64,000 nt of DNA from Bacteroidales bacterium (GTDB taxonomy: Bacteria > Bacteroidota > Bacteroidia > Bacteroidales > GCA-2748055), in NCBI GenBank assembly GCA_021740585.1, contig JAIOZM010000001.1, positions 43,747-107,746 of the forward strand. Reading direction: 5' to 3'. This document shows, in pieces, positions 13,137 through 49,037 of this stretch. The first letter of the stretch is position 1; each line of letters starts with the position of its first letter. A program made the translations under genes and the position numbers. The notes beneath the pieces were generated by a model. The model made no database searches. It worked only from the letters and a program-made list of their open reading frames with translations, and was not told the origin of the DNA.

Positions 13137-13398
13137 AAAGAATACCACGGAGACACGGATTACACAAAGAAACACGGAGAAAGAAAAATATTAGAAGAAT
13201 ATTTAACCAGTTGTAGCGGACTTTGGTAATTAGTAAAAATACGTAAAATCACCCTCCGTGACCCTCCATGTAATCTGTGTCTCCGTGGTATTCTTTAATG
13301 TTGTTTCAATTAATTTGGTTTGAATTTACACAAAACATTTAACTCTGTGACCCTCCGTGTAATCCGTGTCTCCGTGGTATTCTTCAATATTGTTTCTA
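13137..13398. repeat. Three copies of a ~50-bp CTCCGTG-rich element (one inverted, two direct)
   Basis: Core tgtaatc(c/t)gtgtctccgtggtattctt occurs at 13268-13296 and 13358-13386. Its reverse complement (aagaataccacggagacacggattaca) is at 13137-13163. Flanking ctccgtg / ccctccgtg heptamers accompany all copies. Confidence 0.75.
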
Positions 13399-15555
13399 CT
13401 AGGCCTTAATACTACTTATTAGTATTTCAAGAATCTTCTTAGCTGCAACAGATACCGATGTGCCCGGACCAAAAATAGCCATTACCCCCTCTTTATAAAG
13501 GAAATCATAATCCTGAGCAGGAATAACCCCACCGGCAATGACTAAAATATCTTCACGACCAGCTTTCTTTAGTTCCTGAATTACCTGCGGAACCAAAGTT
13601 TTATGTCCGGCTGCAAGGCTCGACACCCCAAGCACATGCACATCATTTTCAATGGCTTGTCGGGCTGCTTCGGCCGGTGTTTGGAAAAGGGGTCCGATAT
13701 CTACATCGAATCCGATATCGGCATATCCGGTTGAAACTACTTTTGCCCCACGATCGTGACCATCCTGTCCCATTTTGGCGATCATTATTCTTGGCTGGCG
13801 GCCTTCCAATTGGGCAAATTCCTTAGCGAGCTCACAGGCTCTTTTAAAATTAGCATCTTTCATTGATTCAGAAGAATATATACCGGAAATAGATCGGATT
13901 ACTGCTTTGTATCTGCCTGAAACTTCCTCAATTGCATCAGAAATTTCACCTAAAGTAGCCCGGTTTTTTGCTGCTTCAACAGAAAGTTCCAGTAAATTTC
14001 CTGTTCCTGTTTTTACGGCATGGGTAATATCCTTTAAGGATTTAATCACATCAGTTTCATTCCGTTCAGATCTTAGTTTTTGAAGTCTTTTGATCTGATT
14101 TTCCCTCACAACGGTATTGTCAACTTCCAGAATATCCATAGGTTCTTCCTGAGATAATTTGAAACGGTTAATTCCAACTATGGTATCTTTTCTTGAATCG
14201 ATTCTGGCTTGTTTCCTTGCAGCAGCTTCTTCAATCCTCATTTTAGGTAATCCGGTTTCAATGGCCTTTGACATTCCGCCCAGTTTTTCAACCTCTTCAA
14301 TAAGAGCCCAGGCTTTATGTGCTATCTCATGAGTTAGGCTTTCAATATAATATGAACCTCCCCAGGGATCTACAGAATTACAAATCCCGGTTTCTTCCTG
14401 AAGATAAATTTGTGTATTTCTGGCTATTCGTGCCGAGAAATCGGTAGGTAAGGCTATTGCTTCATCGAGGGCATTGGTATGCAGAGACTGGGTGTGTCCT
14501 AAACCTGCAGCCAAAGCTTCCACACAGGTTCGGGCAACATTGTTAAAGGGATCTTGCTCGGTTAAGCTCCAACCCGAAGTTTGAGAGTGAGTTCTGAGAG
14601 CCATGGATTTCGGATTCTTAGGATTGAACTGTTTCACAATCTTCGCCCAAAGCAATCTGGCTGCTCTCATTTTGGCAATTTCCATAAAGTGATTCATTCC
14701 AACGGCCCAGAAAAATGATAAGCGAGGTGCAAATGCGTCGATATCAATTCCGGCAGCTATACCCGTACGAATATACTCAAGACCATCGGCCAGGGTATAA
14801 GCCAGTTCGAGATCGGCAGTAGCCCCTGCTTCCTGCATATGGTATCCTGAAATACTTATAGAGTTGAATTTTGGCATTTTTTTCGAAGTATATTCGAAAA
14901 TATCTGCAATTATCCTCATTGAAGTTTCGGGTGGATAAATGTATGTATTCCTAACCATGAATTCCTTCAGAATATCGTTTTGAATGGTTCCGCTAAGTTC
15001 TTCCAGTTTTGCACCCTGTTCCAGGGCAGTAACTATATAAAAGGCCATTATCGGAAGTACGGCTCCGTTCATTGTCATTGAAACCGACATTTTATTCAGA
15101 GGAATTTCATCGAACAGAATTTTCATGTCGAGGATAGAGTCGATAGCCACCCCTGCTTTTCCAACATCACCTTCCACTCTTTCATGATCGGAATCGTAGC
15201 CACGGTGAGTAGCCAGGTCGAAGGCAACGGAAAGTCCTTTTTGTCCTGCAGCAAGATTTTTACGGTAAAAGGCATTCGATTCTTCCGCAGTAGAAAATCC
15301 GGCATACTGCCTGATGGTCCAGGGACGGGTAACATACATAGTGGAGTAGGGTCCCCGCAGGAAAGGAGCTTTCCCGGCAATAAAATCCAGATGCTCCATT
15401 TTTTCAAGATCTTCCTGTGTATAAACCGGCTTTACAAGTATATGCTCAGGTGTTTCCCATTCATTTTCAATGAGATTTTCTTTTACCCGGCTTTCACTAT
15501 CTTTTCCTGATAGGCTTGCCTTTTTGGGATTTATTTTTTTAAAATCGGGCTTCAT
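13399..15555 (-). CDS. mutB: Methylmalonyl-CoA mutase large (catalytic, B12-binding) subunit
   Basis: 718 aa. Contains [23 protein letters not shown] and [17 protein letters not shown], plus the C-terminal B12 domain [11 protein letters not shown]. Confidence 0.95.
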
Positions 15556-43084: not shown

Positions 43085-46000
43085 TCAATTCAAATTGTAT
43101 TCAATTTCAGTATTATCATTAATAAAGCTGAAAAAATCGTCAGAGATCTCTATATATTGATTTCTGGAAAACAGGTCCAGCATTATATTTGTATCCTTAT
43201 CAACAATGGTAAATCGCAAAAGTTTTCCGGGATGATTCTTTTCAGGCTTTTTTATAAAAACACTTACATTTTCAATAAGTTCATCACTTAGATTTTCAAC
43301 ATTTACTTTCAAGGTTACCTGCTTAACTAATTCAGTTCTTGCTTCCGAGAGTAAATGGATAGATTTTAATCGAAGCGAGATACCTTTCCTCCCGTCTTTG
43401 GTCTCCCATTCTTCAACAACAGCCTTAATCAACAGGGCAATTCCGGGGGTAAAATAAGACTTAAATGACACAAAGTCGTTCCTCCATAAACCCAATCGAT
43501 AACTATCGGTATAATCTTCTAAAACAGCATTCCCAAAAGGCTTATTGTTTTTAGCAATGCCTTCACGGAATGATTTTACCATCCCGGCAAAAACGACTTC
43601 CCTGCCCACCAAAGCTTCTATATTATTATTCAGTTTATCAAGATCGGTATTGCAAAGATTTATAATTTCGGGTTTGAACCGGTCCAGAGGGTGAGCTGTA
43701 AGGTAAATTCCAATCAGCTCTTTTTCTTTCGCTATTTTTTCCATTAAATCCCATTCGGGCGCATCTGTGGGCTCCGGCTTATGAATGGTTTCTGATGTGG
43801 ATTCTCCGAAAAGAGACTGTTGACTACTGCTTTTTTCAACTTTTAATCGATTCCCGTATCTTATTAATGCTTCAATAAAAGTGGGTTCGTTATTGGACGG
43901 AAGAAAATACTGAGATCGGTGATAGGGAGGAAAACAGTCGAAAGAGCCTGAATACGCGAGCCCTTCCAGACTTTTTTTATTCACACTTTGAAGATCAATC
44001 CTTTCAGCAAAATCGTATAAACTTTTAAATTCTCCATTCTTTTTTCTCTCCTCAATAATGCTTACAACCGCACTTTCACCCACGCCTTTTATAGCTCCCA
44101 ATCCAAATCTGATATTACCTTTTTTATTTACGGTAAACTTTAATTTACTTTCATTTACATCAGGACCTAAAACTAAAATTCCCATTCGCAAACATTCATC
44201 CATAAAAAATCCAATTTTTTTGATGTCTGAAAAATTCCGGCTAAGTACCGCAGCCATAAATTCAGCAGGATAATGCGCTTTAAGATAAGCTGTTTGAAAG
44301 GAAATATAAGCATAGCAGGTTGAATGAGATTTATTAAAAGCATATTGAGCAAATGCTTCCCAATCTTGCCATATCTGAAGAACAATTTTTTCGTCGTGAT
44401 TATTCTTCTTACAACCAGCAATAAACTTTTCCTTCAGCTCGTCCATCATTTTCTTTATCTTCTTACCCATGGCTTTCCTCAGGGAATCTGCCTCACCCCG
44501 GGTAAATCCGGCTAATTTCCTCGATAGGCGCATCACCTGTTCCTGGTAGACCGTAATGCCATAGGTTTCCTTCAGCTCCTCTTCCATTTCGGGAAGTGAA
44601 TATTTAATTACTTCTCTTCCGTGTTTTCTGGCAATGAAATTGGGGATATATTCCATAGGTCCCGGTCTGTATAAAGCATTCATCGCAATCAAATCCTCAA
44701 AACGGTTTGGCTCTAAATTTCGCAAATGCTTCTTCATTCCCGGCGATTCAAACTGAAAAAGACCAGTGGTATCGCCCCGGCTAAAAAGTTCATAGGTTTT
44801 AGGATCGTCGAGGGGAATAGAATCGAAATCAATATCAATTCCCTTCGATTCTTTAACATTAGCTATGGCATCTTTGATAATGGACAGTGTTTTTAAACCC
44901 AGGAAGTCCATTTTCAACATCCCCACATCTTCAATATGCTTGCCGTCGAATTGGGTTACCAGTAAATCAGATTCTTTTGATTTGCACACAGGAACATGTT
45001 CAATCAAATCATCTTTTCCAATAATAATTCCACAAGCATGAAGACCGGTATGTCGCACCGAACCTTCGAGAATCTCAGCATATTTTAGTGTTGAGGCTAT
45101 CAATTCATTGTCTGAGGTTTGTTCTTTTTTCAGTTCCGGCACCTCCTTAAAAGCATCTTTAAGTGACGTACCGGGTCTTTCCGGCACTAATTTCGAGAGC
45201 CGGTCAGCAATGGAAAGCGGAAGTTTCTGAATTCTGGCAACATCGCGAATAGACATCTTAGCTGCCATCGTACCAAAAGTGATGATATGCGCTACCCGTT
45301 CCTTACCGTATTTATTTACCACCCATTTAAGTACATCGTCCCGGCCATCTTCATCAAAATCGATATCGATATCAGGCATTGACACCCGGTCCGGATTCAG
45401 GAACCGCTCAAAAAGGAGATTGTATTTCAAGGGATCTATATCGGTTATTTTGGTGCAATACGCTACCACAGATCCTGCTGCCGATCCACGTCCGGGTCCC
45501 ACCGATACGCCCATATTCCGGGCCTCTTGTATAAAGTCCTGAACAATAAGAAAATAGCCCGGGAAGCCCATCTTTTTGATGGTCTCAAGCTCAAAATCTA
45601 TCCTTTCAGTAATTGTTTGGTCGATTTCTTTATATCTTTTTTTCGCACCCTCAAGGGTGAGGTGTCGTAAATAATCGTCTTCGTTCTCAAATCCCTCAGG
45701 AATAGGGAATTCCGGCAAAAGAGGCTTCCGGTTTAATTCGTAGGATTCAATTTTATCAACTATTTCCTGTGTATTTATTAAAACTTCAGGAATGTCGGAA
45801 AATAAAGCGGCCATCTCCTCCCTCGTTTTAAACCATTCCTGCTCGGTATAGCTTAAACGTTTGGGATCGTCAATATCGCTATTTGTACTCAGGCAAATTA
45901 AGCGATCGTGAGCTCCGGCATCTTCAGCATTAATAAAATGAACATCGTTGGTGGCAATGCATTTTATATTGTGTTTTTTTCCTAGTTTAAGGAGAACCTG

Positions 46001-47329
46001 ATTCACATATACCTGATCGTTGAATACTTTTTCATTCATCCCGGTTTTATCAGAAGGATGCCGTTGAAGCTCAAGATAAAAATCCTCTCCAAAAATATCT
46101 TTGTATTCCAGAACGACCAATTCCCCAGCTTCCTCGCCTTCGTTTACAATGGTCTGAGGAATTTCTCCTCCAAGGCAGGCCGAAGAGGCAATAATCCCTT
46201 CATGATACTTCTTTAAAAGTTCCTTATCAATCCTGGGTTTGTAATAAAAGCCTTCCGTCCATCCAAGAGAAACCAGTTTCACGAGATTATTGTAGCCTTT
46301 TTTATTTTTTGCAAGAAGAATGAGGTGATCTCCACCGCCATCTGATTTTTCATCCTTATCGAAACGACTTCTCCGGGCAACATACATCTCACAGCCAAGA
46401 ATGGGAATCAGGTCGTTTTTTAAGGCTTCATTATGAAAAACTTTTGATCCGAACATGTTTCCATGGTCGGTTAATGCTATGGCTTTCATCCCGTCTTGTT
46501 TGGCTTTTTTTATCAAGTCAGATATGGAAGCAGCTCCATCGAGAATGGAATACTGGGAGTGTACGTGAAGATGGGTGAAATTATAATCTTCCGAATTTAT
46601 TGATTCCGTGGTATTTTCTATGGAATCGGCTTCCTTTTCAAGCGGATTAAAATTTGACTCGATTTCTATTTGAAAAGCAGGGATAATTTCCGGATTTTTA
46701 AGAATAAAATCTTCATAATCAGTGCTCGTAATATTCAATTTCTTTTCATCCAGAACTTTTAAACGGTAAAGCTCAAAAAAACATCTGGCTGTTGCAGCTA
46801 CATCGGCAGAAGCATTATGAGCCTCATCAAATTCTTCATTGAACAGCTTTTTGTGTAGTTCAAAAAGCGTGGGCCATTTATAGCTTCCTCCTCTTCCTCC
46901 GGGCAGCTGACAGAAATCGGTGCTTTCATCCTTGGTGCATAATTGGGTGGTGCTTTTTAAAGGATTCTCCATAGTAAGACGAAGATATTCAGCAGCCAGA
47001 ATATTTAAATCGAATTCAATATTATGTCCGATTACAAGAAAAGAGTTTTTTACATCTTCAGAAAATTCCAGCATTACTGTTTTTAATTCCTTGCCATCCT
47101 CTAAGGCTTTTTGTGTGGTGATGCCATGAACCTTTTCGGCACCAAAGGGAATGGTAAAACCTTCCGGCTTTACAATATGATTTTTTGCTGCAATTAATTT
47201 CCCTTCTTTGTCATGTATTTCCCACGCAAGCTGAACCAACCGGGGCCAGTTATCCAAATCCTCAATGGGAGCATTGTAATTTTTGGGTAATCCCGTTGTT
47301 TCTGTGTCAAATATTAAAAACCACTGCAC
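43085..47329 (-). CDS. dnaE: DNA polymerase III alpha subunit with fused N-terminal DEDDh 3'-5' exonuclease (DnaQ-like) domain
   Basis: 1414 aa with a GTG start. Exo motifs are FDTETTG, GHNIEFDLNIL and HNASADVAAT (aa 1-196). These are followed by the PHP domain (HLHVHSQYSILDGA), palm/fingers (MPDIDIDF, GLLKMDFLGLKTL) and an OB fold. Confidence 0.95.
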   Translation of the reverse strand: MQWFLIFDTETTGLPKNYNAPIEDLDNWPRLVQLAWEIHDKEGKLIAAKNHIVKPEGFTIPFGAEKVHGITTQKALEDGKELKTVMLEFSEDVKNSFLVIGHNIEFDLNILAAEYLRLTMENPLKSTTQLCTKDESTDFCQLPGGRGGSYKWPTLFELHKKLFNEEFDEAHNASADVAATARCFFELYRLKVLDEKKLNITSTDYEDFILKNPEIIPAFQIEIESNFNPLEKEADSIENTTESINSEDYNFTHLHVHSQYSILDGAASISDLIKKAKQDGMKAIALTDHGNMFGSKVFHNEALKNDLIPILGCEMYVARRSRFDKDEKSDGGGDHLILLAKNKKGYNNLVKLVSLGWTEGFYYKPRIDKELLKKYHEGIIASSACLGGEIPQTIVNEGEEAGELVVLEYKDIFGEDFYLELQRHPSDKTGMNEKVFNDQVYVNQVLLKLGKKHNIKCIATNDVHFINAEDAGAHDRLICLSTNSDIDDPKRLSYTEQEWFKTREEMAALFSDIPEVLINTQEIVDKIESYELNRKPLLPEFPIPEGFENEDDYLRHLTLEGAKKRYKEIDQTITERIDFELETIKKMGFPGYFLIVQDFIQEARNMGVSVGPGRGSAAGSVVAYCTKITDIDPLKYNLLFERFLNPDRVSMPDIDIDFDEDGRDDVLKWVVNKYGKERVAHIITFGTMAAKMSIRDVARIQKLPLSIADRLSKLVPERPGTSLKDAFKEVPELKKEQTSDNELIASTLKYAEILEGSVRHTGLHACGIIIGKDDLIEHVPVCKSKESDLLVTQFDGKHIEDVGMLKMDFLGLKTLSIIKDAIANVKESKGIDIDFDSIPLDDPKTYELFSRGDTTGLFQFESPGMKKHLRNLEPNRFEDLIAMNALYRPGPMEYIPNFIARKHGREVIKYSLPEMEEELKETYGITVYQEQVMRLSRKLAGFTRGEADSLRKAMGKKIKKMMDELKEKFIAGCKKNNHDEKIVLQIWQDWEAFAQYAFNKSHSTCYAYISFQTAYLKAHYPAEFMAAVLSRNFSDIKKIGFFMDECLRMGILVLGPDVNESKLKFTVNKKGNIRFGLGAIKGVGESAVVSIIEERKKNGEFKSLYDFAERIDLQSVNKKSLEGLAYSGSFDCFPPYHRSQYFLPSNNEPTFIEALIRYGNRLKVEKSSSQQSLFGESTSETIHKPEPTDAPEWDLMEKIAKEKELIGIYLTAHPLDRFKPEIINLCNTDLDKLNNNIEALVGREVVFAGMVKSFREGIAKNNKPFGNAVLEDYTDSYRLGLWRNDFVSFKSYFTPGIALLIKAVVEEWETKDGRKGISLRLKSIHLLSEARTELVKQVTLKVNVENLSDELIENVSVFIKKPEKNHPGKLLRFTIVDKDTNIMLDLFSRNQYIEISDDFFSFINDNTEIEYNLN

Positions 47330-47443
47330 AATCTTTCCTTTCTTTATTGTAAATGTCTAGTAATCAGGGAAAAAATAAATCCCTTTGGGATTTATAAAAT
47401 TAGGGATTTTTTGGGGGAATTTGGTGGGTTGTTGATAAGTTTT

Positions 47444-47605
47444 GGATGGGAGGTTGGGTGGGAGGTTGGATGGGACGTTGCATGCAACGTCCGTACTGCT
47501 ATTGATGAGGTATAATCTGCTGCTGTGCCATTGCATGCAACGTCCGTACTGCTATTGATGAGGGATAATCTGCTGCTGTGCCATTGCATGCAATGGCACA
47601 GCAGC
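47444..47605. repeat. Composite repeat: 3 x 12 bp (ggatgggaggtt), 20-bp palindrome, 2.4 x 53-bp tandem ending in a perfect 34-bp palindrome
   Basis: 12-mers at 47444, 47456 and 47468. ggacgttgcatgcaacgtcc at 47473-47492. 53-bp units begin at 47478, 47531 and 47584, with one mismatch between the full units. gctgctgtgccattgcatgcaatggcacagcagc at 47572-47605. Confidence 0.85.
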
Positions 47606-47687
47606 AAAAAAAATCCAAATTCCCCTACGATTTTTCAGCCTTTTTTATATTAATAGATGGAGCTGTTGCAGACAAGGGCTCCACAAA

Positions 47688-48209
47688 ATGATTAATATGA
47701 AAAAAAGATACAACAGGAAATCGATGAGACTAAAAGGATATGATTACAGATCCCCAGGATTTTATTTCATTACCATTTGCACAAAAAACCGCAGACAATT
47801 TTTCGGCCATATCAAAGATGAGAAAATGCATTTATCAAAAATTGGATTATTGGCCGATAAATTCTTTCGGGAAATCCCCGATCATTTTCCAAATGCACAA
47901 TTGGGAGAATATGTGGTGATGCCGGATCATGTGCATGGGATTGTGGAATTATTGGATATTGCTTGTAGGGCCGTTGCATGCAACGGCCCTACAGCAATAT
48001 CCCATTCCTCAATATCCCCAAAATCCGGATCCCTATCCGCCCTGATCCGATCCTATAAATCGGCAGTAACCAAAGATTCTCGGCCATTTGAGCCGCAATT
48101 TGAATGGCAGGAAAGATTTCATGACCGAATTGTTAGAATAAGTGATCCGGGTCATAAATACCGAATAGCTCAGTATATTATAAATAATCCAAAAAATTGG
48201 AGAAAATGA
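47688..48209 (+). CDS. REP-associated tyrosine transposase (RAYT, IS200/IS605 Y1 family)
   Basis: RLKGYDYRSPGFYFITICTKNR, the HUH motif VVMPDHVHGIV, and the C-terminal ERFHDRIVR...YRIAQYIINNPKNW containing the catalytic Tyr context. Confidence 0.8.
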   Translation: MINMKKRYNRKSMRLKGYDYRSPGFYFITICTKNRRQFFGHIKDEKMHLSKIGLLADKFFREIPDHFPNAQLGEYVVMPDHVHGIVELLDIACRAVACNGPTAISHSSISPKSGSLSALIRSYKSAVTKDSRPFEPQFEWQERFHDRIVRISDPGHKYRIAQYIINNPKNWRK

Positions 48210-48249
48210 TTTTATTGAGACGTTGCATACAACGTCCCAACAAAATAAA

Positions 48250-48326: not shown

Positions 48327-49037
48327 ATGCCTGTAAAAATCAGAATGACAAGACAAGGGCGTAAGAGAAAGCCCTTTTATCACATTGTAGTTGCTGATAG
48401 CAGAGCGCCACGAGATGGTAGACAAATCGACCAATTAGGGTCCTACAATCCAAACACCAATCCTGCAACCATCGAATTAGATTTCGAGAAAGCATTGGAG
48501 TGGTTACAAAAAGGCGCTCAACCTACAGATACCTGTAGAGCTATTTTATCTTACAAAGGTGTATTAATGAAAAAACACCTTCTTGAAGGCGCAAAAAAAG
48601 GTGCCTTTACAGAAGAAGAAGCCGAAGCACGTTTCCAAAATTGGTTAACTGAGAAAGAATCTGGTATTCAAGCCAAGAAAGAATCAATAGCCAGAAAAAT
48701 TGCAGACGCTGAAAAAGCTGCTCTGGCAAGAGAAACTGAAATTAATCTGGCTCGTGCAGCTGCGATTGAGAAGAAGAAGCAAGCTGTAATTGAAGCTGCT
48801 AATGCTCCTGCTGAAGAAGAAGCTGAAGAAGTTGAAGTTGCTGAAGAAGCTCCTGTTGCTGAAGTTACTGAAGAAGCTCCTGTTGCTGAAGTTGCTGAAG
48901 AAGCTCCTGTTGCTGAAGTTGCTGAAGAAGCTCCTGTTGCTGAAGTTGTAGAAGAAGCACCTGCTGCTGAGGTAGTTGAAGAAGCTCCTGTAGCTGAAGC
49001 TCCGGCAGAAGAAGAAAAGAAAGATTCTGACGCATAA
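48327..49037 (+). CDS. rpsP: 30S ribosomal protein S16 with long repetitive acidic C-terminal extension
   Basis: N-terminal [32 protein letters not shown] is canonical S16. Residues ~90-236 form a helical K/E/A region plus EEAPVAEV(A/T/V) repeats. Confidence 0.95.
48840..49001 (+). repeat. Six in-frame 27-bp tandem repeats inside rpsP
   Basis: Units begin at 48840, 48867, 48894, 48921, 48948 and 48975 (gctgaagaagctcctgttgctgaagtt). Units 1-4 are nearly identical; units 5-6 have diverged. Confidence 0.9.

Follow-up and report, generated by a model that had tools for sequence, protein, structure and literature searches.

The 64-kb stretch of Bacteroidales DNA that we analyzed (here called the window) contains a genuine REP-associated tyrosine transposase gene (TnpA_REP, or RAYT) with palindrome copies before, inside and after it. 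The gene occupies positions 47688 to 48209 on the plus strand, encodes 173 amino acids, is assigned to subclass 2.4 (Group 4) by its motifs, alignment, profile and AF2 model, and is the only copy of its family in the window. On one side of it is dnaE (43085 to 47329, minus strand) and on the other is the gene for ribosomal protein S16 (rpsP, 48327 to 49037), followed by that for RimM. The original prediction had named dnaE and rpsP correctly, and it was also right about the 173-aa open reading frame (ORF) with its Y1 motifs, which are PDHVHG at aa 79 to 84 and AQYIINNP at aa 161 to 168, and about the positions of two palindromes, GGACGTTGCATGCAACGTCC at 47473 to 47492 and GACGTTGCATACAACGTC at 48219 to 48236. 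It did not include the hybrid copy, the 36-nt palindrome, the in-gene palindrome, the degenerate hairpin, or the 53-bp and 12-bp tandem repeats that are described below. In GenBank, the same protein is called from Met4 and is 170 aa long (K9H49_04695, a "hypothetical protein" of a Bacteroidales MAG).

Three motifs can be read from the ORF: a HuH motif, DHVH, at aa 80 to 83; WQ at aa 140 to 141 (in the context EWQERFHD); and YIINNP at aa 163 to 168. The protein ends 5 residues past the NP of YIINNP (NPKNWRK) and has no C-terminal tail domain. Its scores against general profiles are below cutoff (19.5 bits for Pfam Y1_Tnp, for which the cutoff is 23, and 43.9 bits for NCBIfam REP_Tyr_transpos, the REP-associated tyrosine transposase profile, for which the cutoff is 80), and a single-sequence phmmer search against the PDB gives no match. 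When a family profile is compared with the PDB, the sole match is E. coli TnpA_REP (4ER8; E = 3.6e-6). In this alignment, "WqerfhdriiRn" pairs with "WQPRFWEHAIRN", which is the W-Q...R segment that reads GTAG, and the counterparts of E. coli W94, Q95, and R104, the residues that contact the GTAG foot (Quentin 2018, PMC6006769), are W140, Q141, and R150 of the ORF. More than 4,000 relatives were found, including proteins from Labilibaculum, Flavobacterium, and Amniculibacterium and many metagenomic proteins, and the nearest of these besides the identical GenBank entry is 53% identical. Residues H81, H83, W140, Y163, I164, N167, and P168 are invariant in the family alignment. Among the 120 closest of the more than 4,000 homologues, the motifs are [ND]H[VTMI]H, WQ (in 105 of the 120), and YIxNNP, and the median length is 196 aa, in agreement with Table 1 of Quentin 2018 (PMC6006769). 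The Asp that stands in place of Asn before the first His in the ORF (DHVH) is also present in 23 of these 120 proteins. Alignment columns 130 to 225, which come after the HUH motif, are hypervariable and hold from 0 to ~90 aa.

The AF2 model of the protein has a mean pLDDT of 80 and a pTM of 0.75, with most of the core above 90. The loop at aa 93 to 110, between strand E81-88 and helix H116-131, has a pLDDT of <50. The best 30 PDB matches to the model found by Foldseek are all Y1 transposases (ISDra2, IS608, IS200, or 4ER8 chains), and the best superposition is on 4ER8, with a TM-score of 0.56 and an rmsd of 5.1 Å. The predicted fold is that of a Y1 transposase, with an IS200/TnpA_REP-like α/β core, the HUH motif on a β strand, and the Tyr on a C-terminal helix. 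The YxxxNP type of the Y motif (as in TnpA_REP, where IS200 has YxxxQ), the profile match to 4ER8, and the modeled Y1 fold all support the proposal, made from the sequence by the earlier reader, that the gene is a RAYT with cognate REP hairpins.

The palindromes share a core 10-mer, TTGCATGCAA, which is present in 4 exact copies in the 64-kb window, all of them in the interval 47478 to 47983, and in a fifth copy with one mismatch at 48223. Since only ~0.06 exact copies are expected by chance in 64 kb, the cluster is real. REP copy 1 (47472 to 47497, minus strand) consists of GGGACGTTGCATGCAACGTCC and then GTAC, and has a single-stranded DNA hairpin energy of −8.1 kcal/mol (z = −2.9). On the minus strand it reads 5′-GTAC-GGACG..., in which the foot is a variant, GTAC, of the GT[AG]G form. 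A 12-bp tandem repeat detected by TRF (TTGGATGGGAGG, 3.6 copies, 47442 to 47484) runs into the left arm of this first REP. A second TRF repeat, with a 53-bp unit in 2.2 copies and 98% matches, extends from 47478 to 47593, and each of its units begins at the TTGCATGCAA core, which makes a BIME-like cluster in the intergenic region between the divergent dnaE and RAYT genes. The hybrid REP copy (47525 to 47550, minus strand) has a left arm of the TGCCA type and a right arm consisting of CGTCC and GTAC; it folds no better than its shuffles, and its left flank pairs with 47584 to 47606. The 36-nt perfect palindrome TGCTGCTGTGCCATTGCATGCAATGGCACAGCAGCA (47571 to 47606; −20.2 kcal/mol, z = −6.8) has the apical core of the other copies with compensatory stem changes and is without a GTAG foot. 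A degenerate hairpin, TGGAGCTGTTGCAGACAAGGGCTCCA (47658 to 47683, plus strand; −8.4 kcal/mol, z = −3.3), ends 4 nt before the ATG and is 76% identical, in register, to the REP copy downstream of the gene. That downstream copy, GAGACGTTGCATACAACGTCCC (48217 to 48238, minus strand; −7.9 kcal/mol, z = −6.5), begins 7 nt past the stop codon and is a CATA loop variant with degenerate feet. The in-gene REP, TGTAGGGCCGTTGCATGCAACGGCCCTACA, is a 30-nt palindrome at 47964 to 47993 (−18.4 kcal/mol, z = −6.9).

All of the six elements except the hybrid copy form single-stranded DNA folds that are far more stable than those of shuffled sequences (−7.9 to −20.2 kcal/mol). The stems differ from copy to copy by compensatory changes (ACG/CGT, CCG/CGG, and CCA/TGG), and the apical TTGCATGCAA is constant. 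Canonical GTAG/CTAC feet are found in the in-gene copy only; the four related local copies are without a canonical foot, and upstream copies 1 and 2 have GTAC on the minus strand. The noncanonical feet of the flanking copies could mean that the local system is perhaps decaying. A reading of these elements as an RNA gene was dropped, as the only matches in Rfam were to generic miRNA hairpins, at scores below threshold, and no described RNA family was recognized. In many genomes, short tandem repeats of 7 to 12 nt lie directly against the REP foot, and part of the foot or arm sequence is often reused in them. Apart from the repeat at 47442 to 47484 in this window, tandem repeats lie beside the palindrome at loci L012, L021, L026, L052, L055, L089, L120, and L122. 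Short repeats within subclass 2.4 genes are mentioned in Fig. S6 of Quentin 2018 (PMC6006769).

REPs before, inside, and/or after the gene recur at the homologous loci of Labilibaculum, Amniculibacterium, Ignavibacteriales, Piscirickettsiaceae, and Saprospiraceae. Homologous loci from four phyla have the in-gene palindrome in nearly all cases and upstream or downstream copies in some, and where a downstream REP is present, it is usually 18 to 19 nt beyond the stop. These observations bear on the possibility that the palindromes are operators or terminators of the neighboring housekeeping genes and have nothing to do with the ORF. The REP cluster does lie in the divergent dnaE/ORF intergenic region, and the downstream copy resembles a terminator in its minus-strand score. 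However, the hairpins have no T-run toward the flanking genes, the palindrome is also found within coding sequence, and it accompanies homologues of the ORF in other phyla and among unrelated neighboring genes. This conserved association of palindrome and ORF across loci contradicts an operator or terminator role, which we regard as next to impossible.

The gene contexts themselves are varied. In Labilibaculum the family gene adjoins an ABC exporter, and in Labilibaculum antarcticum (L001, 13192 to 13557) a PF05635 gene is located 2.6 kb from the family gene. In Amniculibacterium (L003, L004, and L005, 10001 to 10615) the family gene is located within a type I CRISPR-cas operon, immediately ahead of cas4, which is separated from cas1 by a PF05635 (23S_rRNA_IVP) gene. 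No tnpB-like ORF is found beside the gene in the window, and no match to the Pfam tnpB family is found around homologues L001 to L005.

We scanned the 18-mer GACGTTGCATGCAACGTC against one genome per GTDB species. It is present in at least 120 genome stretches, compared with ~9 expected by chance, and the matches listed are from Cyanobacteria, Bacteroidota, Chloroflexota, Ignavibacteria, Desulfuromonadota, Fibrobacterota, Omnitrophota, Patescibacteria, and Gammaproteobacteria. Among the matches listed, 7 of 120 stretches hold a family gene and 113 hold none, which indicates that the palindrome is a dispersed repeat. This dispersal away from family genes, together with the absence of tnpB beside the gene and its homologues, further backs the reading of the gene as a RAYT. 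The flanks of the matches listed give a 30-nt consensus, TGTAGAGACGTTGCATGCAACGTCTCTACA, and the REP is of the double-foot type, with the consensus TGTAG(A/G)GACGTTGCATGCAACGTC(T/C)CTACA; 69 of the 123 occurrences among the matches listed have both a GT[AG]G and a C[TC]AC foot. The stem variant of the type found in the host, GGGCCGTTGCATGCAACGGCCC (GGGCCG...CGGCCC), is present in 24 metagenome stretches that are AT-rich and have GTA...TAC feet, none of which contains a family gene. In Runella defluvii (L062, 4945 and 7379), two REPs are 2.4 kb apart and have nearly identical 45-nt upstream flanks, which suggests that a gene or module has been duplicated and that the REP marks its end.

Within the 64-kb window, no REP copies are present outside the interval 47472 to 48238, so that at this scope the palindrome is confined to the locus, a result that the original prediction had said would count against it. 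Likewise, no copies away from the gene are found within ±10 kb of three homologues. Since the 16-mers that flank Group 4 genes occur on average ~14 times per replicon (Bertels et al. 2017, GBE 9:2110), one would expect to find no dispersed copies in 64 kb. The same absence could also be taken to mean that the locus is a decaying relic, in which the ORF is still open but the genome has lost its REP population and retains only inactive local remnants of it. The flanking copies, with their noncanonical feet (GTAC and GTTG), mutated loop (CATA), and one nonfolding hybrid, fit such a relic. Nevertheless, the ORF is uninterrupted and retains all of the residues that are invariant in the family, the GTAC foot and CATA loop variants occur in other genomes too, and zero copies in 64 kb is what ~14 per replicon would lead one to expect. 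We therefore consider it very unlikely that the locus is a relic.

A different possibility is that the gene and its flanking hairpins are an autonomous IS200-like insertion sequence, in which the palindromes are the left-end and right-end recognition hairpins rather than separate REPs. Several observations are consistent with this: the ORF is bracketed by hairpins at rather fixed distances, dispersed copies are absent from the 64 kb, the homologues are in contexts as unrelated as dnaE/rpsP, an ABC exporter (Labilibaculum), and a CRISPR-cas operon (Amniculibacterium), and the distribution of subclass 2.4 is patchy and resembles that produced by horizontal transfer (Quentin 2018, PMC6006769). 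In contrast, the Y motif is YIINNP and not Y[IV]ENQ, tnpB is absent, a second, nearly identical copy was not encountered (53% being the identity of the closest nonidentical homologue), and the palindromes are perfect and have GTAG feet, whereas the ends of IS200/IS605 elements are imperfect subterminal hairpins. In addition, the palindrome stands alone in 113 of 120 genome stretches among the matches listed. An insertion sequence of this kind is thus improbable, if somewhat less so than a relic. It is also not exclusive of a RAYT with separate REPs, since horizontal transfer may move such a unit, too, as one block.

Based on the protein motifs, the modeled fold, the positions of the palindromes, and comparisons with the earlier work described below, we conclude that the locus is very probably a "REPtron", that is, a Y1 HUH RAYT gene of subclass 2.4/Group 4 together with cognate REPs that are located upstream of it, in frame inside it, and past its stop codon. 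Subclass 2.4 of the TnpA_Y1 proteins, as defined by Quentin, Siguier, Chandler, and Fichant (2018; BMC Genomics 19:475; PMC6006769), is the same as RAYT Group 4 of Bertels. Its motifs are a HuH of the form NH[IFV]H, WQ, and YIxNNP, its median length is 194 aa, it has an insertion of variable length and sequence between β3 and αC, and its range is given as "Cyanobacteria, Bacteroidetes and various phyla" (PMC6006769). All of the subclass 2.4 features that we tested are present here (HuH, WQ, YIxNNP, the β3-αC insertion, the in-frame REP, and the tail-less C terminus), and a GT[AG]G or double-foot REP within ±1,000 nt of the gene is provided by one canonical copy. The protein is near the median length of the subclass, double-foot REPs (GT[AG]G...C[TC]AC) flank the gene and are in frame within it, and the occurrence in Bacteroidetes is also shared. 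The differences are that the ORF has DHVH (Asp for Asn), that its stems (GGCCG and TGCCA) are compensatory variants of the published GAGACG stem, that the upstream copies are in a 53-bp tandem, and that the feet of the flanking copies are GTAC or degenerate.

The original prediction had held that this arrangement was uncharacterized in Bacteroidota and that a palindrome centered on GCATGC was distinctive, and on both of these points it was wrong. The arrangement is that of subclass 2.4 (Quentin et al. 2018), or Group 4 (Bertels et al. 2017), and Table S1 of Quentin includes the exact palindrome, GTAGAGACGTTGCATGCAACGTCTCTAC, both with a gene of Cyanothece and with Emticicia oligotrophica, a member of the Bacteroidetes (PMC6006769). 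The same table lists the CATA-loop variant, which is the form found downstream of the stop here (PMC6006769). A full-text search for the palindrome string in the bodies of papers gave nothing, and the string was found only in this supplementary table. Since both the gene subclass and the exact palindrome were described in 2017 and 2018 in Bacteroidetes and Cyanobacteria, the locus is an ordinary new example of a known system.

Among better-known relatives, E. coli TnpA_REP/RAYT (YafM; 4ER8; subclass 2.2/Group 2) resembles the protein in its Y1 HUH fold, its YxxxNP motif, and its W-Q...R segment, and its gene is also flanked by cognate REPs. It differs in that it is only ~19% identical and has DHLH, YIHYNP, and a Ser-containing C-terminal tail. 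The REPs and BIMEs of E. coli have a single foot and a bulge, number in the hundreds of copies, and are not inserted in the gene, whereas those described here are perfect palindromes. Membership in the E. coli-type subclass 2.2/Group 2 was rejected on the basis of the different motifs, the lack of a tail, the perfect palindromes, and the REP_Tyr_transpos score (43.9, below 80). The TnpA proteins of IS200/IS605 elements (subclass 1.1; IS608, ISDra2, and IS200) share the fold (Foldseek E values down to 4e-6) and, if the analogy holds, would share a single-strand DNA chemistry that recognizes hairpins. They are characterized by Y[IV]ENQ, a frequent tnpB partner, many near-identical copies, and imperfect subterminal hairpins without a GTAG foot. 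Subclass 1.1 was also rejected, because the ORF has YIINNP, there is no tnpB in the neighborhood, and the nearest nonself homologue is 53% identical. A further likeness is to the GTAG-tagged REP superfamily, which consists of short GTAG-tagged palindromes from Cyanobacteria, Chloroflexi, and Proteobacteria, with some copies inside genes. Di Nocera, De Gregorio, and Rocco (2013; BMC Genomics 14:522) described GTAG repeats in Proteobacteria, Cyanobacteria, Chloroflexi, and the PVC superphylum, and reported only CGTC-tagged repeats for Bacteroidetes. That superfamily is set apart here by its described range.

The in-gene REP has the layout TGTAG-GGCCG-TTGCATGCAA-CGGCC-CTACA, with a double foot (GTAG...CTAC), and keeps the reading frame open. 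It encodes the peptide CRAVACNGPT, which is in a surface loop (aa 93 to 110) that is predicted from the model to be disordered and that lies between the HUH and Tyr motifs. The corresponding loops of homologues contain VACN, LHAT, LQCN, or HCD, often several times per protein; VACN and LHAT are one DNA core read in different frames. Such a loop-peptide signature is found in 94 of the 120 closest homologues, and an in-frame in-gene REP is also present at homologous loci L001, L002, L003, L024, L057, L077, L095, L112, and L117. The occurrence of the core in several frames points to the DNA sequence, rather than the peptide, being conserved or recurrently inserted. We had considered the in-gene palindrome as a candidate new feature and rejected this, as it is explicitly described for subclass 2.4 (Quentin 2018, PMC6006769).

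It is conceivable, but rather doubtful, that the in-gene REP is a selected cis element and not a tolerated accident, and any functional role for it is speculative. If it is selected, an ORF that carries a perfect copy of its own substrate would guarantee that enzyme and REP are transferred together, and the in-gene REP could serve to reseed a population of REPs once the gene had been transferred horizontally, or to autoregulate the gene. Such selection would go some way toward explaining why an identical 28- to 30-nt REP is found in at least 10 phyla, given that a classical REP is restricted to one species or genus.

The analogy with E. coli TnpA_REP suggests an enzyme that would bind the REP where it forms a hairpin in DNA that is single stranded, such as the lagging-strand template, and that would recognize the GT[AG]G foot with W140, Q141, and R150. 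The strand may then be cut and rejoined by the HUH-bound metal and Tyr163, and in the E. coli-like scheme this cleavage and rejoining would spread or rearrange REPs. Repeated cutting and rejoining of this kind, or recombination from core to core, would leave arrangements like the upstream tandem and the hybrid copy. The E. coli mechanism on which this analogy draws reportedly comes from the work of Ton-Hoang (2012) and of Messing (2012; PDB 4ER8). We know of no biochemical assay of any subclass 2.4 enzyme.

The proper annotation for the gene is TnpA_REP/RAYT of subclass 2.4 with REPs, in place of the GenBank "hypothetical protein", and CRAVACNGPT should be annotated as a REP-encoded peptide. 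Beyond annotation, the locus has little significance; it adds nothing unique, and any member of subclass 2.4 would serve as a model. As a whole, the subclass is a reasonable model for the recognition and spread of REPs by RAYTs, with its compact perfect palindromes, its in-gene REP, and a REP that is identical across phyla. What value remains is in this cross-phylum identity and in the question of the function of the in-gene copy.

Some further features of the region and its surroundings were observed. A scan for sigma-70 promoters gave no promoter, and such a scan is uninformative for Bacteroidota promoters. Between the REP cluster and the dnaE start codon, at 47375 to 47395 on the minus strand, there is a hairpin with a 9-bp stem followed by a T-run, which is terminator-like and may insulate dnaE. 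DnaE is 1,414 aa long and has an N-terminal RNase_T/DnaQ-like 3′-5′ exonuclease domain (aa 5 to 184) fused to PHP, pol III α, finger, and HhH domains. Ribosomal protein S16 has an acidic C-terminal tail of ~150 aa that is built of repeats with a periodicity of 9, 18, or 27 nt (EEAPVAEV ~6 times; 48765 to 49034). Finally, an intergenic cluster of a ~43-nt repeat (AAAGAATACCACGGAGACACGGATTACAC...), which is unrelated to the GCATGC palindromes, is found at 13137 to 13401 and contains two direct copies 89 nt apart and one inverted copy, with 84 to 88% identity.
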